64,000 bases of DNA from a virus (lineage: Duplodnaviria > Caudoviricetes), in the IMG/VR virus record IMGVR_UViG_3300042465_005116, positions 128,001-192,000 of that record; one strand, 5' to 3'. Every line of letters starts with the position of its first letter. The stretch's first letter is position 1. Under the pieces are notes generated by a model. That model did not search any database. It was not told where the DNA came from and saw only the letters and a list, made by a program, of their open reading frames with translations. Below are positions 1,561 to 60,552 of this stretch, in pieces. A program made the translations under genes and the position numbers.

Positions 1561-2676
1561 TTAATGTGAATCTTCTACATTATGTTTTTCTGCAAAGATT
1601 AAATAATCTGGGTTAATAACTTTTGCAATCTTTTGTCTTTCGCCGGTTTGGTGTTTGATTACAATTCCTTCCTCTGGTACTTTTGTATTTGGAATAAAAT
1701 TATTGAATGTGTATTTATCTTGTACTTCTTGTGACCAACTTCCGTAGTGTAAAATTTCTACATAAGGTAATTCCAAAATATCTTTAATCAGTAACCTAGC
1801 ATTAATAACACTTAAATACTCACTATTCTCTTTTACATCGAATCCTACGAACTTAATCTCCGTTAACCCATAATCATATCCCTTTTGGATTCCCGCTCCG
1901 TAAATCTCACCATATAAGGTAATACCATCACCAATCTCCGGCTCCATTGTATTACTCTTAACATAATCCCACAACTTATTTTTGATATCGTATTTCCTTT
2001 CAATATCATACCAAACATTGGTATCATAGAATCCTTGAGAATCAGAGCCTTTCTCTACATTATGTGAACCAACTACAAATTCATATTCAGTCCATTTGTT
2101 ACCAAACAACTTTTTAATTCTATCTAATATAGATAATTTAGTTTTCTTAACAATACCATAACGAGCATTTGTTCCGTGAATCTTACGAGTAATTTCCACA
2201 GTGTCATCTTCAGTAAACATTCCCGGTACATTTTTTAAGTTAGGAAACTTATAGTAGACATGAAAGTGTGGGTTATCTTGATAACGAATCTTTCTACCAC
2301 TTGCTAATTGAACCATTTTAACTGGTGGTTCATATTTGTAAATACCTAAATAATCCATCATATCATCACCTTCACTAACGATTGGTGTTAACGTATATGG
2401 AATAATTAAAGACTCACTATAAACTCCTCTTAACTTAACAGTTCTAACCCTACCACCATTACGAAGATAATTGGTTACTCCTAATTTTTCGGATAAATCA
2501 AATGGAATTACCGCATCGGTTGTTGCACATATTACTAACTCACCAACATTATGAGCATCTTTTTTTACTATACAATTCCAACCACCAACTACTGCTAATT
2601 CAATATTATCAGCACCATCAATAGGTTTAATTTCATTTATTTTTGCCACATAGCAAACTGAATTATTATTTTCCAT
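1561..2676 (-). CDS. ATP-dependent RNA ligase (Rnl2/DRB0094-like)
   Basis: Nucleotidyltransferase motifs KIHG (I), YGEIYG (III), FVGFDV (IIIa), EGIVIK (IV), KVINPDY (V); likely start MENNNSVCYVAK at 2676. Confidence 0.85.
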   Translation of the reverse strand: MENNNSVCYVAKINEIKPIDGADNIELAVVGGWNCIVKKDAHNVGELVICATTDAVIPFDLSEKLGVTNYLRNGGRVRTVKLRGVYSESLIIPYTLTPIVSEGDDMMDYLGIYKYEPPVKMVQLASGRKIRYQDNPHFHVYYKFPNLKNVPGMFTEDDTVEITRKIHGTNARYGIVKKTKLSILDRIKKLFGNKWTEYEFVVGSHNVEKGSDSQGFYDTNVWYDIERKYDIKNKLWDYVKSNTMEPEIGDGITLYGEIYGAGIQKGYDYGLTEIKFVGFDVKENSEYLSVINARLLIKDILELPYVEILHYGSWSQEVQDKYTFNNFIPNTKVPEEGIVIKHQTGERQKIAKVINPDYLIFAEKHNVEDSH

Positions 2677-2677
2677 A

Positions 2678-2974
2678 TTATTTATTTTTAAATTGTTCAA
2701 ACCATTCTTTAAATGATAATTTACATTCAATTCCATCAGATACATTTGCTTTCCAGCAAGCCATAAATGATTCTGCCATATCTTCCTCACTATACATTCT
2801 TTCTTTAGATTTAACACCCACTCTAAATCCACTCCAAAAAATATTGGCTTCACGATTTAAATCTGATAGATTAGATTCTTTTTCAGTATCCTCAACCCAA
2901 TTTTCATACAATCCCAAATTCTCATCATATCTCATCATGTCAATGAGGTGTTGTTTTTGTTCTTCTTTTTTCAT
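2678..2974 (-). CDS. hypothetical protein
   Basis: 98-aa ORF abutting the ligase start. Confidence 0.6.
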   Translation of the reverse strand: MKKEEQKQHLIDMMRYDENLGLYENWVEDTEKESNLSDLNREANIFWSGFRVGVKSKERMYSEEDMAESFMACWKANVSDGIECKLSFKEWFEQFKNK

Positions 2975-4239: not shown

Positions 4240-4262
4240 TAATTTATGAGGTTTTTTTATAG

Positions 4263-4336
4263 TGGACCAGATAGGATTCGAACCTATGACCTCAACATTA
4301 TGAGTGTTTTGCTCTAACCAACTGAGCTACAAGTCC
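4263..4336 (-). tRNA. tRNA (CAT), probably Ile2 (lysidine) or elongator Met
   Basis: Cloverleaf, loop CTCATAA, TTCGAAT T-loop, A73. Confidence 0.85.
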
Positions 4337-4385
4337 ATTATCGTTTAATCTAACGATAAAATCTGATATCGTTTCTTTCAACGAT

Positions 4386-4418
4386 AAAAAATAAGCAGGT
4401 GTGGAATCACCTACTTAT
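4386..4418 (-). terminator. intrinsic terminator
   Basis: ATAAGTAGGTG/CACCTGCTTAT hairpin followed by a T-run. Confidence 0.6.
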
Positions 4419-4474
4419 ATAGTGAATGAGAAACATATGAATCTCTTGCGGCTATATCACCAAAGCCCATTAGG

Positions 4475-4588
4475 TGCCGGAGGAAGGATTGGTTACCTAC
4501 ACGATTTCCTTACGGAGTAATCAACTTTTTACAAAGTCACGTCTCAAGGTTTACTACCCAAAGGGAATGCTCTTTCCGCCACTCCGGC
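4475..4588 (-). ncRNA. tRNA-Leu-like RNA lacking an anticodon loop
   Basis: Perfect 7-bp acceptor GCCGGAG/CTCCGGC plus A73; 35-nt D-loop; ACTTT-GTAA-AAAGT anticodon arm; long variable arm; degenerate T-loop. Confidence 0.6.
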
Positions 4589-4604
4589 ATATATCTTTTT
4601 TTTG

Positions 4605-4678
4605 TGGAGGTGATAGGAGTCGAACCTACTACCCTCTGCGTGCAAGGCAGATGCTCTAGCCAAATGAGCTACACCCCC
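4605..4678 (-). tRNA. tRNA-Ala(TGC)
   Basis: Cloverleaf, G3:U70, loop CTTGCAC. Confidence 0.95.
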
Positions 4679-4792
4679 CCAATTAATGTAATGTCTGTAC
4701 GGTTTGTATCTTATCCACACTTTTATTGTGTTTCATTAGTTTCCATTTCATACTTAGCGTCCGTTCCGTCATTCTTTCGAATCATTACATCG

Positions 4793-4878
4793 TACCAGAG
4801 GTGGGAGTCGAACCCACACGAGCGATTTATGCTCAACAGATTTTAAGTCTGTCATGTCTACCATTCCATCACTCCGGC
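4793..4878 (-). tRNA. tRNA-Leu(TAA)
   Basis: Class II cloverleaf, loop CTTAAAA. Confidence 0.95.
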
Positions 4879-4894
4879 ATTTATTCTAATTATC

Positions 4895-5329
4895 CTAATT
4901 TAGTTTACTTAATATTACCCCATTAAGTTTAGTATGATTATCATCTGGATTTATTAATATATCGATTTTATTTTTCCATCGCGGATTCATTAAATCCCTA
5001 ACGTAGTAAACTCCATTGTATTTTCCAGCATTTGACACTCTTACTTTTTCACCAAATTTAAATTTCTTTTTTATATCTCTACTTACTGCAATCACTCTAT
5101 GTTTTTTAGGATTATCCTCATCTAATTCAAAGCCACTCGCCGTTTCTAACGGAGTATCATCAGTTTGTAAAGGGTCAATTGTATATGTAGTCATCGTAAC
5201 AACAAATTTCTTAATTTCCTTAACAACCTCTTCCTTTACCATAGTTTCGATTTTGAATGGATTGGGTGGGGTTACATTTGATGGTAGGATTACCGCAGTA
5301 ATTAATAATATCAATATTAATCTTTTCAT
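4895..5329 (-). CDS. 3D (Asp-Asp-Asp) domain cell-wall protein with N-terminal signal/anchor
   Basis: TTYT...QTDDTPLETASG, IAVSRD, VRD...IDIL pattern. Confidence 0.75.
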   Translation of the reverse strand: MKRLILILLITAVILPSNVTPPNPFKIETMVKEEVVKEIKKFVVTMTTYTIDPLQTDDTPLETASGFELDEDNPKKHRVIAVSRDIKKKFKFGEKVRVSNAGKYNGVYYVRDLMNPRWKNKIDILINPDDNHTKLNGVILSKLN

Positions 5330-5368
5330 AATTTACATTTATGGTTAATAATAACTATTACACTTTTG

Positions 5369-5442
5369 TGATTCGGAAAGGATTCGAACCTTTGGCCTAT
5401 TCATTAGAAGTGAATTGCTCTATCCAACTGAGCTACCGAACC
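5369..5442 (-). tRNA. tRNA-Arg(TCT)
   Basis: Cloverleaf, loop CTTCTAA. Confidence 0.95.
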
Positions 5443-5447
5443 AAATC

Positions 5448-5612
5448 GTTGTTTCAACTTGCAAGTTTACTCTTAACATCTCTTTCTCTACAACGTCTGA
5501 ATTTAATCAACATTTGTAGTCCGAATGTAGCTTCTGGGTAATTACTCCAATGCTTCTATGTAACTCTATATAACTTACTTTGTTACTAAGTGTGTTAAGT
5601 GTATGAAACAAC
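5448..5612 (-). ncRNA. candidate 165-nt structured RNA between tRNA-Asp and tRNA-Arg
   Basis: Terminal 9-bp stem GTTGTTTCA/TGAAACAAC continued by TACACTTAACA/TGTTAAGAGTA; internal hairpins. Confidence 0.45.
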
Positions 5613-5615
5613 TTG

Positions 5616-5689
5616 CGGAATGTATGGGACTCGAACCCATGACCTCATCCGTGACAGGGATGCATTCTAACCAACTGAACTAACACTCC
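5616..5689 (-). tRNA. tRNA-Asp(GTC)
   Basis: Cloverleaf, loop CTGTCAC, G73. Confidence 0.95.
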
Positions 5690-5694
5690 AAATG

Positions 5695-5767
5695 AGCCTC
5701 CTGTCGGATTCGAACCAACGACCCCTTCATTACAAGTGAAGTGCTCTACCAACTGAGCTAAGGAGGC
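5695..5767 (-). tRNA. tRNA-Thr(TGT)
   Basis: Cloverleaf, loop CTTGTAA. Confidence 0.95.
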
Positions 5768-5855
5768 GTTTGATAGGTGACCCTCCTATCGTGAAACTAT
5801 ACATCGTTTCTTTTCTTTATAGAACTCTATTCAGAGAACTGCTGGAACATTTTTG

Positions 5856-5927
5856 TACTCCCAACGGGATTCGAACCCGTATTACTACCGTGAAAGGGTA
5901 GTGACCTAACCATTAGTCGATAGGAGC
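5856..5927 (-). tRNA. tRNA-Glu(TTC)
   Basis: Cloverleaf, loop CTTTCAC. Confidence 0.95.
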
Positions 5928-5946
5928 ATATAATTTTATAACAATG

Positions 5947-5978
5947 TAAAGATACGAAGAATATTCCACATATCCAAA
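5947..5978 (-). promoter_or_regulatory. internal sigma-A-type promoter in the tRNA array
   Basis: TTTG-N20-TATCTTTA. Confidence 0.7.
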
Positions 5979-5979
5979 T

Positions 5980-6441
5980 TTAATTGTGTATTTTTACTAA
6001 GTGGTCAGCAGCATAAGTTGCTATTGGCCCTAATGATTTATATCTTACTGAATACCCCATACCTTCAACCATACCCACTGCTTGTCTAAACACTTCGTTA
6101 GATTTAAAGCGTGGGTCTGGGTTCAAGTCAATATCAATCCACTTAGGTTTTGGAATACCAGCCTCGCGTAATTCTTCGGCAGTTTCAATTGCAAACCAAA
6201 CTTCTTGTAATAATCTAACTGAACGGATTCTTTCTCTTTCACTATTCCATCTTCTATACAATACATGTGCACCCTTTCCTTTTCTATATAAGGCAACTAC
6301 GATTGCATAAATAGTTTTGTTACCTGAATTTTGTGAATCACAACCAATTAAGATTTCTGCATCGGTATTCGTAATCATATATTCTTTGATATATGAAATC
6401 AATTCCACTTCTTCTGCCGTATACAATTTTTTATAAACCAT
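5980..6441 (-). CDS. RNase H-like protein (YkuK/DUF458 family)
   Basis: ILIGCDSQ, LLQEVWFAIETAE, IDIDLN, AADHLVK acidic motifs. Confidence 0.75.
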   Translation of the reverse strand: MVYKKLYTAEEVELISYIKEYMITNTDAEILIGCDSQNSGNKTIYAIVVALYRKGKGAHVLYRRWNSERERIRSVRLLQEVWFAIETAEELREAGIPKPKWIDIDLNPDPRFKSNEVFRQAVGMVEGMGYSVRYKSLGPIATYAADHLVKIHN

Positions 6442-6461
6442 AATTTTACCTTTTTATTTTG

Positions 6462-6536
6462 TACCCATAGTAGGACTCGAACCTACAATTGTGTGGTGTC
6501 TAAAGCCACTGCGTATTCCAATTCCGCCATACGGGT
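6462..6536 (-). tRNA. tRNA-Leu(TAG) with short variable region
   Basis: Leu-type D-arm GGCGGAATTGGAATACGC, loop TTTAGAC, 6-nt variable region. Confidence 0.85.
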
Positions 6537-6545
6537 ATATTTCAG

Positions 6546-6631
6546 CAGAGAGTGAGGGGCTCGAACCCTCGCGGCTTTAACACCCTAACGATTTAGCAAA
6601 CCGTCCCCTTCACCAACTTGGGTAACTCTCT
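6546..6631 (-). tRNA. tRNA-Ser(GCT)
   Basis: Class II cloverleaf, loop TTGCTAA, G73. Confidence 0.95.
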
Positions 6632-6633
6632 AT

Positions 6634-6710
6634 TGGGGTGATTAATGGGATTCGAACCCATACTATCAGTACCACAAACTGACGTGCTAACCATTAACAC
6701 TATAAACACC
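6634..6710 (-). tRNA. tRNA-His(GTG)
   Basis: G-1:C73 pair, loop TTGTGGT, encoded CCA. Confidence 0.95.
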
Positions 6711-6715
6711 ATATG

Positions 6716-6786
6716 TTGCGTGTTTGAGGTTTGAACTCAATTGGTCATCCTTATGAGAGATAACTCTTTTCCACTAAGCCACGCAA
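6716..6786 (-). tRNA. atypical tRNA (CAT), probable elongator Met
   Basis: Normal anticodon arm (CTCATAA) and T-arm, but the acceptor TTGCGTG/CACGCAA lacks the 8-9 linker. Confidence 0.6.
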
Positions 6787-6790
6787 TGTG

Positions 6791-6862
6791 AGGCGGGTAT
6801 TGGATTCGAACCAATGTTAAAGGTTTTGCAGACCTCCTCCTAACCACTCGAGACAACTCGCC
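6791..6862 (-). tRNA. tRNA-Cys(GCA)
   Basis: Cloverleaf, loop CTGCAAA, U73. Confidence 0.95.
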
Positions 6863-6927
6863 ATTATTTGTTGTTCACTTTTTTTGTTTGTTCACCGATA
6901 GTGAACACTCTAAATTTGTGAACATTG

Positions 6928-7000
6928 TAGTTCCATAAGGACTCGAACCCTAACTTTTTCATCCGTAGTGAAAGGTGCTATCCAATTACACCATAGAACT
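6928..7000 (-). tRNA. tRNA-Arg(ACG)
   Basis: Cloverleaf, loop CTACGGA. Confidence 0.95.
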
Positions 7001-7006
7001 ATTTTG

Positions 7007-7077
7007 CACCCCCTGAAAGATTCGAACTTTCATCTGCGGTTTTGGAGACCGATATGCTACCATTGCACCAAAGAGAT
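7007..7077 (-). tRNA. tRNA-Trp(CCA)
   Basis: Cloverleaf, loop CTCCAAA, G73, wobble-rich acceptor. Confidence 0.9.
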
Positions 7078-7139
7078 GTATTATTAGTGTTCCAAAACTC
7101 TATTTTTTTGTTAGATTTGGAACACCAATAACCAAATTG

Positions 7140-7213
7140 TTGGTAATGCGGGATTCGAACCTGCCACCTTCTCGGTATCAGCGAGATGCTCTAACCAAAT
7201 GAGCTAATTACCA
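7140..7213 (-). tRNA. tRNA-Ile(GAT)
   Basis: Cloverleaf, loop CTGATAC. Confidence 0.95.
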
Positions 7214-7219
7214 ATGTTG

Positions 7220-7295
7220 TCGGATAAGCAGGATTCGAACCTGCGTGCTCCACATCCCAAATGTGGCGAGATAGACCTGACTCCTCTACTATCCG
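7220..7295 (-). tRNA. tRNA-Pro(TGG)
   Basis: Cloverleaf, C1:G72, loop TTTGGGA. Confidence 0.95.
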
Positions 7296-7301
7296 TTATT
7301 G

Positions 7302-7375
7302 TGAACCCGAATGGACTCGAACCATTGACTCCCTCATTAAAAGTGAGGTGCTCTAACCAACTGAGCTACGAGTTC
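7302..7375 (-). tRNA. tRNA-Lys(TTT)
   Basis: Cloverleaf, loop CTTTTAA. Confidence 0.95.
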
Positions 7376-7381
7376 ATTCTG

Positions 7382-7454
7382 TGGAGAAAGTTGGTTACGC
7401 TCCAACTCCTGTGGATTTTCAGTCCACTGCTTCTACTAAGTTAGCTTCTTCTCC
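7382..7454 (-). tRNA. tRNA-Phe(GAA) with non-canonical T-loop
   Basis: Loop CTGAAAA; T-arm GTTGG-AGCGTAA-CCAAC. Confidence 0.85.
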
Positions 7455-7461
7455 TATTAAG

Positions 7462-7543
7462 TGCCTGCAGATGGACTCGAACCACCGAACTCCGAAGAGA
7501 GGAGATTTACAGTCTCCAGCAATTGCCACTATGCGATACAGGC
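7462..7543 (-). tRNA. tRNA-Tyr(GTA)
   Basis: Class II cloverleaf, loop CTGTAAA. Confidence 0.95.
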
Positions 7544-7589
7544 TAATTGAGTTGTATTCCAAATTCGAATTTGGAATAATTTCAAATTG

Positions 7590-7663
7590 TAGAAGATATA
7601 GGATTCGAACCTATGACCCTTTGGATGTAAACCAAATGCTCTAACCAACTGAGCTAATCTTCT
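7590..7663 (-). tRNA. tRNA-Val(TAC)
   Basis: Cloverleaf, loop TTTACAT. Confidence 0.95.
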
Positions 7664-7669
7664 ATGTTG

Positions 7670-7741
7670 TTACTCGAATAGGATTCGAACCTATACTACA
7701 TCAGTCAAAGTGAGGTATGCTAACCATTACACCATCGAGCA
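7670..7741 (-). tRNA. tRNA-Gln(TTG)
   Basis: Cloverleaf, U1:A72, loop CTTTGAC. Confidence 0.9.
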
Positions 7742-7748
7742 ATTTATG

Positions 7749-7820
7749 AGCGGATGATAGGAATCGAACCTACGTCTCCTACTTGGAAGGAAGGAGTAAT
7801 AACCATTATACGACATCCGC
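7749..7820 (-). tRNA. tRNA-Gly(TCC)
   Basis: Cloverleaf, loop CTTCCAA, U73. Confidence 0.95.
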
Positions 7821-7832
7821 ATGTCAAAGAAC
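7821..7832 (-). promoter_or_regulatory. boxA-like antitermination element
   Basis: GTTCTTTGACAT in the Asn-Gly spacer; resembles rrn boxA. Confidence 0.5.
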
Positions 7833-7838
7833 CAATTG

Positions 7839-7910
7839 AGGGAAGGGAGAATTTCGAAATCTCGACCTGATGATTAACAGTCATCTGCTCTGCCTCTGAG
7901 CTACCATCCC
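7839..7910 (-). tRNA. tRNA-Asn(GTT)
   Basis: Cloverleaf, loop CTGTTAA. Confidence 0.95.
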
Positions 7911-7917
7911 ATAAACG

Positions 7918-7951
7918 AAAAAACCCTTAACTTTTTTATCAGTTAAGGGTT
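7918..7951 (-). terminator. intrinsic terminator (candidate attenuator) directly upstream of tRNA-Asn
   Basis: 11-bp stem AACCCTTAACT/AGTTAAGGGTT, 8-nt loop, T-run. Confidence 0.75.
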
Positions 7952-7981
7952 CTTAAAATATTGTTATAAAATTTTTACATT

Positions 7982-8104
7982 CTATCCACGTTTTACATCC
8001 CTTAACTTACTTCTATCCTCAATCATATTGAAGACACGATTGCCACCCCAAGCACATTTCTGTGTCGGTAGATAACTAAGCGTATGTATTGTTAAAGTTG
8101 CCAT
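7982..8104 (-). CDS. candidate leader peptide MATLTIHTLSYLPTQKCAWGGNRVFNMIEDRSKLRDVKRG (40 aa)
   Basis: ATG 8104 to TAG 7982; overlaps an anti-terminator-compatible AGTTAAGGG at 7999-8007. Confidence 0.6.
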   Translation of the reverse strand: MATLTIHTLSYLPTQKCAWGGNRVFNMIEDRSKLRDVKRG

Positions 8105-8242
8105 TGTGTATAAGTATATTAAAAACTAATTTATGTTTGTTTTTGTGTTAATAAAATAAAAAAAAGTAACTCATCTTCAATATGCACCATCCATGTCATG
8201 CACTGGTTGACAAAAGCCTCGATAAATTACTTAGTATTTTTT

Positions 8243-9127
8243 AAAAAAATCTGGATGAGAATACTCCATCTTATGAACCAGCTTTATAAGGGTTATTGGT
8301 TACCTTAATTTCCACTACCTTTTGAGTAGTACCGATTCAATGTGGGTAAGTAATGCCTACCAATCATAAAGTTACAACCTACTCTCTTTTTACTCCGCCA
8401 CTTCGAATCTGCCGACCCGATTCACATCTCGCGATGCTAGAAGTTTTTCGAAAGAATCACATTTACCTTGAGAGTATTTGTGGCAGTGAACGACTCACTA
8501 CTATGTACACACCTTTCACTTGCAACTGGTAACCACTTTTTCTTTTATTTTTATTTGATTTTCACCATTGAAAGTAAAAGTTTTGGTTTGTAGAAGAATT
8601 CAAGTAGTGGATTACCACTAGCTCCGTTCCATTTTGAAGAACGGAATACTATACTACTCGATACGATATCCCTATCGTCATATTTTAAGTCTACTTCATA
8701 TCTAAACCTTTGGTAAAGTAAAGATAAGGATAATAACAACACCACTTGTACATCATCATACCTTTCGATTTTAAGTAAACTTTCATATTGAATCACGCAA
8801 TGATATGGAGAGATTAAGTCCGTACTTCTTGCAATAACTCTATGGATTATTCTTATTGGTGTCCCCACCTCAACTGAACTTCTACCTAGCCCAGTCATTA
8901 AACCATTTCACTACGGAGTTACCCTCACTAATCAGGTCTAATGATATTCCACTTGCATACTCAAGCTCCATTCCTTTCGGTCTGAAACCGCAAATTAATT
9001 AACCAACTAATTCACTTTATCCTACTTTCGTAGTTTATTTAACCACCATATGCGGCGGGTATGTACTATGTACCACAAGGATACTATGTACAATATGTTT
9101 CGATAATTTAAAGAACTTTTTTTTGTT
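8243..9127 (-). ncRNA. large ornate non-coding RNA, GOLLD/ROOL-like
   Basis: ~880 nt without a credible ORF, between a promoter (9132-9163) and a hairpin plus T7; many GNRA hairpins; next to tRNAs. Family not verified. Confidence 0.6.
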
Positions 9128-9131
9128 AAGT

Positions 9132-9163
9132 CAAAGATACGAAATCTTTTTCACTTTTCCAAA
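9132..9163 (-). promoter_or_regulatory. sigma-A-type promoter of the large ncRNA
   Basis: TTTG-N20-TATCTTTG. Confidence 0.8.
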
Positions 9164-9237
9164 TTTATTTTAAACTTTTTTTTGTTATGTCTAATACCGA
9201 GTATCTTTCATCGCCTATAAGTTTAGAACTAACTTTG

Positions 9238-9269
9238 TAAAGATACGAAAACATTTTCACATTTCCAAA
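9238..9269 (-). promoter_or_regulatory. sigma-A-type promoter (tandem)
   Basis: TTTG-N20-TATCTTTA. Confidence 0.7.
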
Positions 9270-9341
9270 TCTTTTTTTAATTATTTTTTGTGATATTATA
9301 TATAAGTATATAAAAATATACCAAACGTAAAATAATCATTG

Positions 9342-9413
9342 TAGCGGGTGAAGGATTCGAACCTCCGACCTATAGGTTATGAGCCTACCGAGCTACCACT
9401 GCTCTAACCCGCA
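9342..9413 (-). tRNA. initiator tRNA-fMet(CAT)
   Basis: Unpaired 1:72 (T:T), GAGCAGTGGTAGCTC D-arm, loop CTCATAA. Confidence 0.9.
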
Positions 9414-9434
9414 ATATAATTTTAAAGAACATAA

Positions 9435-9540
9435 AACAAAGTAAGATAATGATATCCGGCGTTATAGTTTACCACTTATGGTTGGACTTCACACATTCGG
9501 TTTTATTAGATGTTGGCTTCAACCACTATCTTATTTTGTT
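9435..9540 (-). ncRNA. candidate 106-nt structured RNA upstream of tRNA-fMet
   Basis: 16 of 17 terminal positions pair; begins just after the promoter at 9545-9576. Confidence 0.45.
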
Positions 9541-9544
9541 AAGT

Positions 9545-9576
9545 CAAAGATACGAAAACATTTTCATATTTCCAAA
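9545..9576 (-). promoter_or_regulatory. sigma-A-type promoter
   Basis: TTTG-N20-TATCTTTG. Confidence 0.8.
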
Positions 9577-9589
9577 TCTTTTTTAATAT

Positions 9590-10036
9590 TTATTTTACTT
9601 TGTAAGATAATCCCAATCCTAATGTAAAATCATCACCAATTAAATTACCAATTCCCCATAAATTTATAACACTACTTGGTCTTAGTGGATTGTACATTAT
9701 AAGAAAATTTGGTTTATTACCATTAAGTGTAGGTTGTAATCCAAACCCAATAATCGCCTTATCCTCTTTTACTTGTCTAAGAACACCAAACTTCATATTA
9801 TCAGATACATTTCCTGTTTTGGTATTAACTCCCGGAGGAATTACTATTCCACCATTTTGTCCACCATATTCATCATACGGAAGTCCCGCATAAAATCCCC
9901 ATCCTTTTTTCATAAATCCACCTGTAATGTATCCATCAGATGGTCCACCCTTGCGGGTAGCGGTTATAAACCACTCTTGCCCTTTTGCATTAATACTTAT
10001 TCCGAGTATCAAAGCCATCACTAATAATTTTTTCAT
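9590..10036 (-). CDS. secreted protein, possible small outer-membrane beta-barrel
   Basis: Signal peptide MKKLLVMALILGISINAKG; Gly/aromatic beta-strand pattern, C-terminal LGLGLSYKVK. Confidence 0.6.
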   Translation of the reverse strand: MKKLLVMALILGISINAKGQEWFITATRKGGPSDGYITGGFMKKGWGFYAGLPYDEYGGQNGGIVIPPGVNTKTGNVSDNMKFGVLRQVKEDKAIIGFGLQPTLNGNKPNFLIMYNPLRPSSVINLWGIGNLIGDDFTLGLGLSYKVK

Positions 10037-10347
10037 AGTGCCTTTATGCTCTTTGTTTTTTCAAGAGAATCCTCTCTTATCCATTTTTGTTTTAACTTAT
10101 CTATTTTTTCAATTTTTAGGATTTTACCTTTAAGTGAGACAATCTCCTTCGTAACCTTTTCGGTACGAACCGTACGTGCAGCGAAATCTTCTTCGGTGAT
10201 TTCAATCAATTCTTTTTTTCGATTAAGAACTGATATTTCTTTTTGGATTTTTTCTATCGCTTTACCATCATTAATCAATGAGGGGTCGATAGAATTACCA
10301 ATACTATTAAAAAATAATAATATGGGTAAGGTAAGTTTTTCTAACAT
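10033..10347 (-). CDS. hypothetical coiled-coil protein with N-terminal hydrophobic segment
   Basis: 104-aa ORF. Confidence 0.55.
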   Translation of the reverse strand: MLEKLTLPILLFFNSIGNSIDPSLINDGKAIEKIQKEISVLNRKKELIEITEEDFAARTVRTEKVTKEIVSLKGKILKIEKIDKLKQKWIREDSLEKTKSIKAL

Positions 10348-10430
10348 TTGTAATCAATAGTTAAAAGTGTAACACATATAAATACATTATTATATATTTT
10401 TAATTAAATATATAACAATAATTTATTAAG

Positions 10431-10806
10431 TGGTGGAGGTGGAGGGAGTCGAACCCTCGTCCAAATACGGATTCAATAAACATCATTCACAAGCTTAGTT
10501 AGTTTTTCTTAACTAACAAAATATTCGGTTGGTTCTTCACCATCGGCAACCGATAAACAATGGGTGATTCGATTTTGGGTTCAATCACTTTTCCACCTTT
10601 GTACACATTCTTTTTAAAGTCCCACGATGTGTGCGGGAGGGATTAGGCTGCTATAGCGTAATCAGCACCTACGAAAGACATTACATCTTCGAAGGTCATT
10701 GTAGATAATTCTACGTCGTTTATTGTTCGATAGGTATTTACGGATTTCCATCTAACCCGGCTTGCAACTTACCAACTCATCGTACCTGTCAAAACCAGGC
10801 ACCCCC
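10431..10806 (-). ncRNA. ssrA: tmRNA
   Basis: 5' GGGGGTG...TTTTGACAG, 3' GGTTCGACTCCCTCCACCTCCACCA, G3:U70, tag ORF ending YAIAA*. Confidence 0.93.
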
Positions 10807-10808
10807 AT

Positions 10809-11495
10809 TTATTTTTTATTCAAAGAACGTTTAATTAAATTCTGAACCTTTTCATTTCTCAAATCAATGTACAACATTATAGTTGCTCTATATTCATTTG
10901 AGTAATTATACACATTATGATAATGATAAGAATTAAAATAATATGCTTTACCTACTTCTAATCTTTTTCTAAATATATTCGTAAACCAATCAGGTCTATG
11001 AAATCGCTTCCACCATTTAAATTCAGCCGAATCTACTACACAATATTCAAACTTTTCTGGTACTATAATTGGAATTTGAATAGTTAGTTCCCATTCTTCT
11101 TGTCCATGTTCCAATACGTGCGAGTGCCAAACTAAAGATTGTTTAGGTGCAATTCGCATCACCCTAGCTCTACTATCTAATTGGTTACCACTAATGTTTG
11201 CACATATCTCATACATATAAGGTATTGTGGATTCCAATTCGGTTTTCTGAAAGTTATATTGCTCAGTACCATCTTCGTACATATCTTTATACAAACTTCC
11301 ATCAGAACTAATCAATGAAATACCACTCCATGCTTTACGATACTTTCTTCGTACTTGCCAAAAGTTAGTTCTATAATCTTTGAATTTGTATTTGTTTTTT
11401 AACAATCCATATTCATCAATTAGTTTATCTAAATCAATATCAATGTCCAATTCTAAAAATGGAATACTTTTTAGTTGTTGTATAAGTTCATTCAT
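10809..11495 (-). CDS. 2OG-Fe(II)/cupin oxygenase, Asp/Asn beta-hydroxylase-like
   Basis: RARVMRIAP...WHSH, HNVYNYSNEYR; likely start MNELIQ (the ORF-track extension overlaps an RNA). Confidence 0.7.
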   Translation of the reverse strand: MNELIQQLKSIPFLELDIDIDLDKLIDEYGLLKNKYKFKDYRTNFWQVRRKYRKAWSGISLISSDGSLYKDMYEDGTEQYNFQKTELESTIPYMYEICANISGNQLDSRARVMRIAPKQSLVWHSHVLEHGQEEWELTIQIPIIVPEKFEYCVVDSAEFKWWKRFHRPDWFTNIFRKRLEVGKAYYFNSYHYHNVYNYSNEYRATIMLYIDLRNEKVQNLIKRSLNKK

Positions 11496-11507
11496 ATTAA
11501 TTAATTG

Positions 11508-11676
11508 CTGTAAGAGGAGGATTCGAACCATCCACGATGCGATTCAGTAAGTAACACTTTCTCCGGCCGGATGGTGGTCTACCCCATATTACTTACCTAT
11601 TTCGTTCTCACCACCCCCGAGACAGGAGGGCTTGTCTACCCGGTCATACTGAGACAACCTTTTCCAACACCTTACA
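11508..11676 (-). ncRNA. 169-nt tRNA-like RNA with GTC anticodon and expanded D-loop and variable arm
   Basis: Acceptor TGTAAGG/TCTTACA plus G73, D-stem TTG/CAA, CCCTC-CTGTCTC-GGGGG arm, ~80-nt variable arm, GGTTCGAATCC T-loop. Confidence 0.65.
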
Positions 11677-11772
11677 ATATATGAACTAACTCACTGGAAA
11701 CCTTATAATTGAATTCAATCAACTTATGGGTTAAGTACTCCGTTTATGTTAGTTCCTCGTACTCCAAGTTTG

Positions 11773-11857
11773 CAGAGAGTTAGGGATTCGAACCCCAGAT
11801 ACCTTTCAGTATGCCAGTTTTCAAGACTGGTGCCATCAACCACTCGGCCAACTCTCT
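11773..11857 (-). tRNA. tRNA-Ser(TGA)
   Basis: Class II cloverleaf, loop CTTGAAA, G73. Confidence 0.95.
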
Positions 11858-35731: not shown

Positions 35732-36155
35732 TGTTATAAAGCTAATCTACACATAATATTTCACATTTCCAAATTATTTCCCATTTATTTTACTGACAGG
35801 ATGTCTTCCAGTGCTAAGCGATTGAGTATCAACCGCTTTATTTTCCCAAAATAATACAACCTGGTTAACATAATGCAAATTATATAACAAAAGAATCCCC
35901 ATAAAATACAAATGTGATAACGAATTGACCCTGAATCCCTTATGCAGTCACGAAGGAAACCAAACTGGGTCGTTACAGTCCAACGCACTCCGCCCACCCA
36001 CCCTATAAAGGTACGGAAAAAAATCCACATTTCCAAATAAAAAGGATGACAATGTGTCCGATTTGAGCGATTTGCAATGCGTTCAAGGAATCCCCCATCC
36101 CGTTGCGGATATTGCAATCCGGAGTGAATTGGCACTATGACATAATGTCCGAATC

Positions 36156-59223: not shown

Positions 59224-60552
59224 CTAATCAATATAAAGGAAATCCAAATATTTATCAGATTTTAATTTCTGACGTATTCTTTCATCTGAACATTTAAAGT
59301 GATTTGCTGCTTCTAATAAGGAATAAAACTCCATACCTTCACAACTAATTATCGGCACTTCTATACGAATTGTGCCGTTCCATAGTTTTTCCATTTCATC
59401 ATATGTAATATCCCATTCATCAGTTTTTTTCCAATGACGGTATTTTAAGTTACCGGAATCTATAAAATTACGAGCTCGTTGTTCACTAAAATCTCCACCA
59501 ATTAGTTCTGCTATTTGTTTAGGAGTTTCAAATGGAATACCATCCACCTCATATCGAATTGTGGGTTTGGTTTCTGCTCCTACTATTTGCCAATCTTTGT
59601 ATTTTGATTTAGTAGATTTGCATCTACGTTCTATCTCCGTTGCAACTAATTCATTTGGGTCTATTGATATTGCTGCTTCTCTGAATGATTTATATCTAAT
59701 CCCATCTACAATACATTTATACGAACCATCCCAATTAATATCTTCAGTTGCTAAATCAGGATTACCCTTTACAAATACTAATACGTTTTGATGAACCGAT
59801 GCTATTTTTCGATTTCTATCAAAATATGTTTTGGATATTTTAGATGCCTGATGTTGTGAGTTAAATAACACCATATCGTTATAAAAACTAAAACCAATTT
59901 CCTCACATCCCATTATTGTTTTAGCAACTAAGTTTCGATACTTACCAATTTTATAATTCCCTGTCTTAGATACCTCACGGGTTTCTGATAGAACTATACA
60001 AAAGAATCTATTATCTTTTAGTTTAGAATAGGACTCAGTTAAAATGTGTGCATATGCATCATCAAAATCCTCATCATCCATATTTGATAAATCGTTTTCA
60101 TTATCAGAATATATTTCTAAATCGTAGTAAGGTGGACATGTAAATACAAAATCATAGGTTTCATCATCAAGTGTTTCCAATATCGTTGCACTATCACCTA
60201 CTATCCAATTTGGTTTTTCAGATTGTTTTTGATTTGCAAGGATTTGAGTTTCTGATATATCAATACCTGTGTAATGGTATCCCATTTCTGATGCAACTAT
60301 TCCTCTAACACTACCTCCTGCAAATGGGTCTAATATAGTTCCACCTTTGGGACAAAACCAATCATACATCAATTCACATAATGTAGCATCAAATATTGAT
60401 ACGGAAGGTTCTTCAGTATCCCAAAAATTTGTTTTGGAAATAGTTTGTTCTCTACCTAATTCGGATTGAATTTTATAGGTATTAATCCACCATCTCTTTC
60501 TATCTTGCCACTCTTTTGTACGAGTGTCTAAAATAGAGAAAGGTTTAATCAT
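59224..60552 (-). CDS. amino-DNA methyltransferase with C-terminal NUMOD1/HTH-like repeats
   Basis: DPFAGG (motif I), FTCPPYY (motif IV); three DG/EG-x-x-(Y/F)-x-(S/T)-x-x-(E/Q)-(A/I)-A repeats. Confidence 0.8.
   Translation of the reverse strand: MIKPFSILDTRTKEWQDRKRWWINTYKIQSELGREQTISKTNFWDTEEPSVSIFDATLCELMYDWFCPKGGTILDPFAGGSVRGIVASEMGYHYTGIDISETQILANQKQSEKPNWIVGDSATILETLDDETYDFVFTCPPYYDLEIYSDNENDLSNMDDEDFDDAYAHILTESYSKLKDNRFFCIVLSETREVSKTGNYKIGKYRNLVAKTIMGCEEIGFSFYNDMVLFNSQHQASKISKTYFDRNRKIASVHQNVLVFVKGNPDLATEDINWDGSYKCIVDGIRYKSFREAAISIDPNELVATEIERRCKSTKSKYKDWQIVGAETKPTIRYEVDGIPFETPKQIAELIGGDFSEQRARNFIDSGNLKYRHWKKTDEWDITYDEMEKLWNGTIRIEVPIISCEGMEFYSLLEAANHFKCSDERIRQKLKSDKYLDFLYID

Follow-up and report, generated by a model that had tools for sequence, protein, structure and literature searches.

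Evidence for a canonical GOLLD RNA gene with an rRNA-operon-like leader in the tRNA island of a very large lake phage

Results

A giant structured RNA lies within a phage tRNA island

The window, by which we mean the whole 64,000-nt stretch of phage DNA analysed here, carries an island of 24 tRNAs and a tmRNA at 4262-11857, all on one strand and all on the same strand as the large RNA that is the subject of this work. Besides an RNA ligase, the large open reading frames of the window include those for a radical-SAM protein, an AAA ATPase and a DNA methyltransferase with an I-TevI-like tail. The features that frame the analysis are the following:

1561-2853: phage-type RNA ligase
9341-9413 (-): tRNA-Met, directly upstream of GOLLD (Rfam/tRNA scan)
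8662-9058 (-): GOLLD 5' domain (the cap domain in the solved cage), of the env-38 type (covariation and shared ordered motifs)
8252-8661 (-): GOLLD 3' domain (the ring domain), the universally conserved part of the RNA (RF02032 and covariation)

GOLLD RNAs are among the largest noncoding RNAs of bacteria and phages and build RNA-only nanocages that are larger than the ribosome. The first-pass annotation had placed a GOLLD-type giant structured RNA beside the phage tRNAs, and this call was correct: the Infernal comparison with Rfam that it had proposed as a check returned a match to the GOLLD family (RF02032) at 8252-8661 (-), with 264 bits against a gathering score (cut-off) of 150 bits and an E value of about 1e-75, which spans model positions 1-416 of 416 and is not truncated. 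GOLLD was the sole large match besides tRNAs and tmRNA in the default Rfam scan of the whole window, and a permissive scan (7900-9500, E<=1) returned GOLLD, tRNA-Met, a sub-threshold rox2 and nothing further. The rox2 match, at 28.8 bits vs. a cut-off of 55, sits in the A-rich linker and was rejected as a chance hit. Models for ROOL, OLE, RNase P and group I/II introns gave no match in the same interval at E<=1, and the "ROOL-like" half of the earlier description is not supported. It is important to note that RF02032 models the conserved GOLLD 3' domain only, so that the upstream 400-450 nt needed a separate test.

Both domains are maintained by compensatory changes in lake-phage homologs

Two words taken from the 5' half were found in 52 and at least 118 viral contigs, respectively, and an nhmmer search with window positions 9170-8200 against 166 fetched loci gave 153 matches, 125-127 of which span both domains; full-length GOLLD homologs are present in more than 125 viral contigs. 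The closest records in the phage collection, LR756502 (642 kb) and LR745206 (635 kb), are both uncultured and the only similar ones there, and carry GOLLD at 275 and 287 bits with tRNAs alongside. The 5'-domain word TAAATAAACNNCGAAAGNNGGATAAAGTG had no match in 185,579 species genomes, a count that reports on the exact word and not on the family and that yielded no lead to a prophage or host.

The window and 66 nonredundant full-length homologs (67 sequences) were aligned and an RNAalifold consensus was computed on columns with at most 50% gaps. The covariation among homologs that the first-pass annotation had set as one of its tests is present: the consensus holds 233 pairs, distributed over 37 helical segments, with roughly half of the helices in the 5' domain, and 166 of the 233 pairs show compensatory double changes, each seen in at least two sequences, while 94.4% of cells are standard pairs, a percentage that is inflated by taking the structure from the same alignment in which the pairs were counted. 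When 3' partners were slid by 1-3 columns, pairing dropped to 40-43% and the pairs with compensatory changes to 72-91; column shuffles did not exceed 76% paired for the whole structure or 77% for the 5' domain by itself. The fold goes beyond what the same-alignment bias could explain, given how many types of pair occur and how far the values drop with slid partners. Taken separately, the 5' domain (9058-8662) contributes 121 consensus pairs, 95% paired and 90 with compensatory changes (38-43% paired with slid partners), and the 3' domain 106 pairs, 93.7% paired and 75 with compensatory changes across the 67 sequences. Both domains are kept in shape by extensive compensatory changes in at least 67 distinct phage homologs. 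Median identity is 70.5% in the 5' domain vs. 62.9% in the 3' domain, a difference that we rejected as a sign of stronger 5' conservation because the homologs had been fished with 5'-domain words, which biases the set toward that domain.

The 5' domain is of the env-38 type

The reference for a full-length comparison is env-38, a GOLLD RNA solved by cryo-EM as a 14-mer nanocage (Rfam RF02032; PDB 9MEE; Kretsch et al. 2025, PMC12286853). Its 5' domain spans 1-420 and its 3' domain 421-833, and a linker at 497-538 is disordered (PMC12286853). The window was compared with env-38 by motifs and their order in the construct sequence printed in the supplement of that study (PMC12286853). Within the first ~300 bases of env-38 the window motifs recur in the same order: a GGCCGC..TATGGTC stem; AAATAAA..CGAAAG..GGATAAAGTG; CTGCGGTTTCA; GGAGCTTGAGTAGGCAAGTG.GATATC; GAGGGTAAC; and GTTGAG..CGGAAG..CAATAAGAATAA. 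Judged by these sequence motifs, the 5' domain of the window RNA is homologous to that of env-38. The env-38 construct begins at the helix that starts at window position 9058, which sets the canonical core at 9058-8245, or 814 nt (833 nt in env-38).

The likeness extends to the overall architecture. Both RNAs have two domains and a length of ~0.8 kb, with a full-model 3' match, an A/U-rich internal linker and P21a- and P21b-like loops, and the domain boundary of the window RNA falls correspondingly at 8662/8661; both also lie directly downstream of a tRNA-Met, env-38 in environmental phage-like DNA (PMC12286853). The window RNA differs by an additional leader of ~65 nt that contains a subclade-specific hairpin, by a P21a-like loop that reads CGCGAG, and by a hairpin at 8765/8764 that is plain, GAAA-capped and 16-17 nt shorter, the extension at that site being absent in the window and present in env-38 and 19 of the 67 homologs. 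Two helices named in the first-pass annotation stand with covariation behind them: the hairpin CTAC-GAAA-GTAG (9033-9022), whose GAAA is invariant in 67/67 sequences, and TCCGTTC/GAACGGA, which is part of a 13-bp helix with compensatory changes in 11 pairs.

The first-pass annotation had further entertained a Bacteroidota-phage variant or a new class of large ornate RNA, to which GOLLD and ROOL would be related by analogy only. Such a reading could draw on the Rfam model spanning just the 3' half, on a leader hairpin whose GTACATAGTA repeat is confined to the subclade of the window, and on the one env-38 hairpin extension that the window lacks. Against it, both domains correspond to env-38 GOLLD and to the more than 125 lake-phage homologs: the 3' domain is matched by the full model at 264 bits, the 5' domain has the env-38 motifs in order, neither ROOL nor OLE was matched at E<=1, and the parts that differ are peripheral elements that vary inside the family too (PMC12990946). 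The Rfam match of the 3' domain and the env-38 motifs of the 5' domain refute a new class or distinct variant for practical purposes, leaving it very improbable. The RNA is almost certainly canonical GOLLD, and this copy is an ordinary member of an already known family rather than a new kind of RNA.

The 3' domain carries candidate subunit contacts and a variable linker

Within the 3' domain three elements were delimited:

8370-8527 (-): long-range helix, 8527-8518 with 8379-8370 (bracketed pseudoknot-type helix, Rfam consensus)
8536-8599 (-): A/U-rich variable linker (J13/15 region), 64 nt, 78% A+T
8403-8437 (-): adjacent hairpins, P21a-like (8437-8424, loop CGCGAG) and P21b-like (8420-8403, loop GGCA), assigned by position

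The long-range helix encloses the 3'-domain core with 10 bp, 96% paired, and compensatory changes in 8 of its 10 pairs. At the domain boundary, the local hairpin TAGTGG-TAAT-CCACTA proposed in the first-pass annotation finds no support, its CCACTAC pairing instead over a distance with GAGTAGT (8661-8653 with 8608-8600), a helix that is 100% paired, shows compensatory changes in 6 pairs and is included in the Rfam consensus. The linker varies from 49 to 76 nt across the 67 homologs, and no tRNA was found inside GOLLD in the 127 loci examined, the window linker included; in the solved cage the corresponding segment is disordered and directed into the cavity (PMC12286853).

The hairpin CATC-GCGA-GATG (8436-8425), already recognized from the sequence, was confirmed with covariation and forms the P21a-like element, where the assignment to P21a and P21b relies on the offset from the domain boundary, the motif and the Rfam structure line rather than on a formal alignment. 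Its loop reads CGCAAG in 43 of the 67 homologs, GTCGAA in 13 and CGCGAG or GCGA in 6, whereas the P21b-like loop is mostly GGCA and highly conserved. In the published cage the two half-shells are held together by symmetric kissing loops, those of P21a and P21b, and a GC/CG palindrome switch is the evidence of Kretsch et al. for bridge B8 (PMC12286853); the variation of the P21a-like loop matches that switch, and the conservation of the P21b-like loop is as reported for B9 (PMC12286853).

The longest open frame is not coding

One open reading frame crosses the boundary between the two domains:

8551-8898 (-): 115-codon ORF with an ATG start, the longest of the region, a chance open frame

The frame is open in 1 of the 67 aligned sequences, namely the window itself, and in its closest relatives (85-87% identical) it stops after 4-38 codons. 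Substitution rates at codon positions 1, 2 and 3 are 0.36, 0.31 and 0.29, with the fewest changes at the third position, contrary to what is expected of a coding frame. We conclude that the ORF is not coding because it is open only in the window and shows no codon-position bias, in agreement with the earlier view that the region, whose longest frame is unconserved and without codon periodicity, holds no credible ORF. For a small protein of 115 aa with incidental RNA structure to be the product of the locus, its ATG start and its rank as the longest ORF of the region would have to outweigh the early stops in the relatives, the missing third-position excess of substitutions and the overlap of the frame with covarying helices in both domains; we regard the chance of this as negligible.

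A leader with tandem promoter-like elements and a boxA-like word precedes the core

Upstream of the canonical core we distinguish four elements:

9238-9269 (-): distal promoter-like element (TTTGGAAATGTGAAAATGTTTTCGTATCTTTA), lying 106 nt ahead of the proximal element
9132-9163 (-): proximal promoter-like element of Bacteroidota type (-33 TTTG, -7 TATCTTTG), sequence TTTGGAAAAGTGAAAAAGATTTCGTATCTTTG
9107-9116 (-): boxA-like GTTCTTTAAA in the leader (word search)
9062-9092 (-): leader hairpin, outside the canonical GOLLD core (MFE fold and subclade covariation)

The promoter seen in the first-pass annotation is present as TTTGG-N-TTTCGTATCTTTG at 9163-9132 (-), in the -33 TTTG / -7 TAnnTTTG form that we take to be the Bacteroidota promoter type. 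It belongs to a set of ~10 elements of 32 nt, nearly identical in sequence, on the (-) strand of the window; several of these precede protein genes. Its core word TTTCGTATCTTT has 9 matches in the window vs. 1.0 expected; a scan for the sigma-70 consensus was uninformative (6 sites vs. 6.4 expected). Many of the nhmmer homolog alignments include the proximal element, and 95 of 122 homolog loci have a -7-like word in the 160 nt that precede the first core helix. The closest homolog loci (L032, L018, L134, L064) retain the region 9289-9131, which contains the distal element, ahead of GOLLD, and the distal element may act as a promoter as well. Transcription would start near 9125.

The boxA-like word that had been noted at the 5' end was likewise recovered, as GTTCTTTAAA at 9116-9107. 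Of six GTTCTTT(A/G)A sites in the window, four immediately precede stable-RNA genes (tmRNA, tRNA-Met, GOLLD and tRNA-Gly), and in 117 of 122 homolog loci the word recurs in the 160-nt interval ahead of the first core helix. In E. coli boxA reads GCTCTTTAACAA, and the leaders of bacterial rrn operons combine tandem promoters with boxA. The GOLLD leader resembles these in that two tandem promoter-like elements are followed by the boxA-like word ahead of a long untranslated structured RNA, and in that the same word precedes the tmRNA and tRNAs of the island; it differs in that GTTCTTTAAA matches E. coli boxA at just 8 of 10 positions. The word appears to fit an antitermination leader of the rRNA-operon kind. 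In the mechanism that we propose, transcription would start at one or both of the tandem Bacteroidota-type promoters, and GTTCTTTAAA in the leader would recruit Nus-type antitermination factors of the host, as rRNA operons do, and thereby allow the long untranslated RNA to be completed.

Between this word and the core, the leader hairpin consists of five outer pairs (UGUAC/GUACA) and an inner stem, with a symmetric AUA/AUA internal loop between them and a UUGU loop at the tip. Both of its stems covary in the subclade of the window (for example GTAC/GTAC, GCAC/GTGC, TTAC/GTAA), and other subclades have different hairpins at this place. The threefold occurrence of GTACATAGTA reported in the first-pass annotation proved exact, with copies at 8499, 9064 and 9082 vs. 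0.19 expected. Two of these are the arms of the leader hairpin at 9092-9062, which read alike because GTAC is its own complement, and the third (8508-8499) lies in a single-stranded joint of the 3' domain, where the clade consensus is CTACATAGTA.

The 3' end and the case for an independent gene

The 3' end of the RNA probably coincides with a terminal structure:

8243-8268 (-): terminal hairpin TGGA / loop GTATTCTCA / TCCA, 4 bp (8268-8252), then GA and T7 (8249-8243) (fold)

The first-pass description of a hairpin plus T7 holds in so far as both are present (8268-8243), but GTATTCTCA, which it had made the hairpin stem, is the loop. Among homologs this loop is conserved and the T-run is not universal, and a terminator consensus scan found a single site, at 7954-7919, and did not call the GOLLD 3' end. 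Most nhmmer homolog alignments end at the GOLLD 3' end, and the stretch beyond it, 8242-7911, is taken to be a separate element because it is shared with 16 loci only, mostly of the closest subclade, and at a variable distance from GOLLD. In the proposed mechanism synthesis would end at the last hairpin and T7. Of 116 homolog loci, 41 have a same-strand tRNA just behind GOLLD, the median gap being 13 nt, a proximity that suggests that cotranscription and processing may define the 3' end in many relatives.

These observations bear on a different account of how the RNA is made, according to which GOLLD would be no independent gene, being rather a long structured spacer in a polycistronic stable-RNA transcript (tRNA-Met, GOLLD and the downstream tRNAs) that is released solely by processing of the RNase P, RNase Z or RNase E type, with the promoter- and terminator-like elements minor. 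The placement of all island genes on one strand speaks for it, as do the closely spaced downstream tRNA in 41 of the 116 loci and a terminal hairpin that is weak, uncalled as a terminator and followed by an unconserved T-run. It is opposed by the retention of the directly upstream promoter-like element in 95 of the 122 loci and of the boxA-like word in 117, by the occurrence of the same 32-nt element before protein genes elsewhere in the window, and by the scarcity of upstream tRNAs, present within 400 nt in only 24 of 117 loci (tRNA-Met in 20 of these 24). We consider such a spacer unlikely; transcription most likely starts from one or more promoters belonging to GOLLD itself, with a leader of the rrn kind. 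The spacer alternative concerns the production of the RNA and not its identity.

Near-identical sequences occur in RNA libraries

At least half of the sampled words from 8200-9200 were found in 20 public runs, six of them metatranscriptomes from five studies, and contigs from four RNA runs (four studies, Logan) were placed on 7000-10900. Contigs that lie over their whole length on GOLLD at ~99% identity measure 751 nt (8287-9037, 7 differences) and 611 nt (8251-8861, 4 differences), with a further 546 nt at 8316-8861 and shorter pieces up to 9087 at similar identity; the tmRNA is covered in three of the four runs. Near-identical sequence is thus present in RNA libraries of four studies, where it should be kept in mind that Logan contigs are assembled and carry no strand, ends or level, and that RNA libraries can contain DNA. 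The contig ends are scattered (8251, 8284, 8287 and 8316 on one side, 9037-9087 on the other) and are no guide to transcript ends, nor are the stretches left uncovered by the four runs (7917-8178, 9096-9226 and 9620-10405) evidence of transcript boundaries. Expression of a studied Lactobacillus GOLLD reportedly rises during phage lysis.

Discussion

In light of the results presented here, a very large lake phage very probably encodes a canonical GOLLD RNA at this locus, on the (-) strand from ~9125 to ~8243, or ~880 nt. By homology with env-38, we expect that the RNA probably assembles itself, with no need of protein, into a closed dihedral cage of 10-14 copies, 14 being the likeliest number, in which the 5' domains would form the caps and the 3' domains the rings, with the A/U-rich linker pointing into the cavity. 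An env-38-like length and the P21b-like hairpin make a 14-mer the best guess, and the absence of the hairpin extension from the window 5' domain keeps that guess uncertain, differences in 5'-domain elements being able to shift the copy number from 14 to 12 (PMC12990946). The GOLLD RNA of Streptococcus agalactiae is a 700-nt dodecamer (PDB 9L0R) without P9, P11a-c and P21b (PMC12990946). It belongs to the same family, shares the 3' domain and forms a cage, but it is ~110 nt shorter, and the P21b-like hairpin and env-38-like length of the window RNA place the latter closer to the 14-mer type.

Other RNAs offer further points of comparison. ROOL RNA forms an octameric cage and is associated with phages and found near tRNAs. 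The window RNA resembles it in phage association, neighbouring tRNAs and predicted cage formation, and differs in having an unrelated sequence and fold, with no Rfam match to ROOL here at E<=1. In Mycobacterium, GOLLD occurs within tRNA arrays. These copies lie on chromosomes or mobile elements of Actinomycetota, and in some of them the linker holds a tRNA (Morgado et al. 2020, PMC7549688, cited via PMC12990946; PMC6582537). The window copy is alike in being embedded in a large tRNA array and differs in belonging to a lake phage with Bacteroidota-type promoters and in having no internal tRNA.

The setting invites a guess at function. Its fixed place behind tRNA-Met, the island of 24 tRNAs and a tmRNA, and the RNA ligase nearby lead us to suggest, as the most economical guess but with more doubt than confidence, that GOLLD may take part in a translation-support programme of the phage, for instance as a holder or shield for tRNAs or ribosome-related cargo while the phage grows lytically. 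A bolder and decidedly unlikely proposal is that in giant Bacteroidota lake phages GOLLD would be a core member of a boxA-antiterminated stable-RNA regulon beside RNA-repair genes, with the cage acting on the translation supply of the phage. The order of such a regulon would be rRNA-style, running from tandem promoters through boxA to GOLLD, tRNAs and tmRNA, and an example of the role of the cage would be to store tRNAs or shield them from host anticodon nucleases. In the literature searched, we found no paper that links GOLLD to jumbo or huge phages.

The locus offers a clean and typical example of GOLLD in a lake phage that is very large and encodes an RNA ligase, a tmRNA and a nearly complete set of tRNAs. 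This copy is detectable in freshwater metatranscriptomes and has a leader resembling that of rRNA operons, common to nearly all of its more than 120 relatives. Furthermore, its 5' domain, which lies outside the Rfam model, is well conserved and structured in the lake-phage clade and could support a full-length family model. Should the proposed stable-RNA regulon prove true, the locus would offer a way into the long-standing question of GOLLD function.

Repeated words in and around the GOLLD RNA

On the minus strand of the window, tmRNA, tRNA-Met and the giant structured GOLLD RNA are each preceded, 17-40 nt upstream, by a boxA-like word that also recurs in the gap between tRNA-Asn and tRNA-Gly, and these stable-RNA-associated sites account for four of the six occurrences in the whole 64 kb:

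10828, 9430, 9116 and 7832, minus strand: boxA-like GTTCTTT(A/G)A, next to stable-RNA genes

A different word is shared within GOLLD itself: the 10-mer GTACATAGTA occupies positions 8499-8508, where the 3' domain has a joint that is single-stranded and conserved, with two further copies in the subclade-specific leader hairpin (9064-9091). The leader might mimic the joint or compete with it.

Stretches flanking GOLLD

Upstream of GOLLD, two tandem promoter-like elements are separated by ~75 nt (9164-9237, minus strand; containing GATGAAAGATACTCGGTATT), the counterpart of which in L134, one of the closest homologous GOLLD loci, is placed immediately 5' of the boxA-like word. The distal promoter-like element may therefore be part of a duplicated or extended leader, or else may serve as the promoter of a separate small RNA. 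On the 3' side, the stretch at 7911-8242 (minus strand) has conserved counterparts in 16 of the 166 GOLLD loci retrieved, most of them belonging to the closest subclade, and these lie anywhere from 0 to ~560 nt behind the RNA, a variable spacing which argues that it is syntenic with GOLLD yet a separate element.

Neighboring genes and transcription units

Two protein genes of the window were further annotated:

1561-2853, minus strand: phage-type RNA ligase (PHROG 968, E 2e-57; Pfam RNA_ligase plus PHA02142 OB-fold)
59224-60552, minus strand: DNA methyltransferase (N6_N4_Mtase) with a C-terminal stretch that weakly resembles the DNA-binding domain of I-TevI

The ligase gene sits just outside the tRNA island, a position that would fit a module for tRNA repair and translation maintenance. 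The I-TevI-like stretch of the methyltransferase scores 25.8 bits, slightly below the cut-off of 27 set by Pfam. Of the four metatranscriptome runs compared, three contain fragments of the phage tmRNA (10431-10806, minus strand), the longest spanning 203 nt with 0 differences.

Finally, a promoter-like element of fixed 32-nt length recurs in ~10 copies on the minus strand between 4208 and 36037:

Starts at 36037, 33950, 31097, 23658, 20636, 9576, 9269, 9163, 5978 and 4239, minus strand: 32-nt promoter-like element, TTTGG(A/T)A..N..T(T/C)CGTAT(C/A)TTT(G/A)

Downstream of its copies lie protein genes as well as stable-RNA genes, and the element is probably the marker of one temporal class of transcription units.
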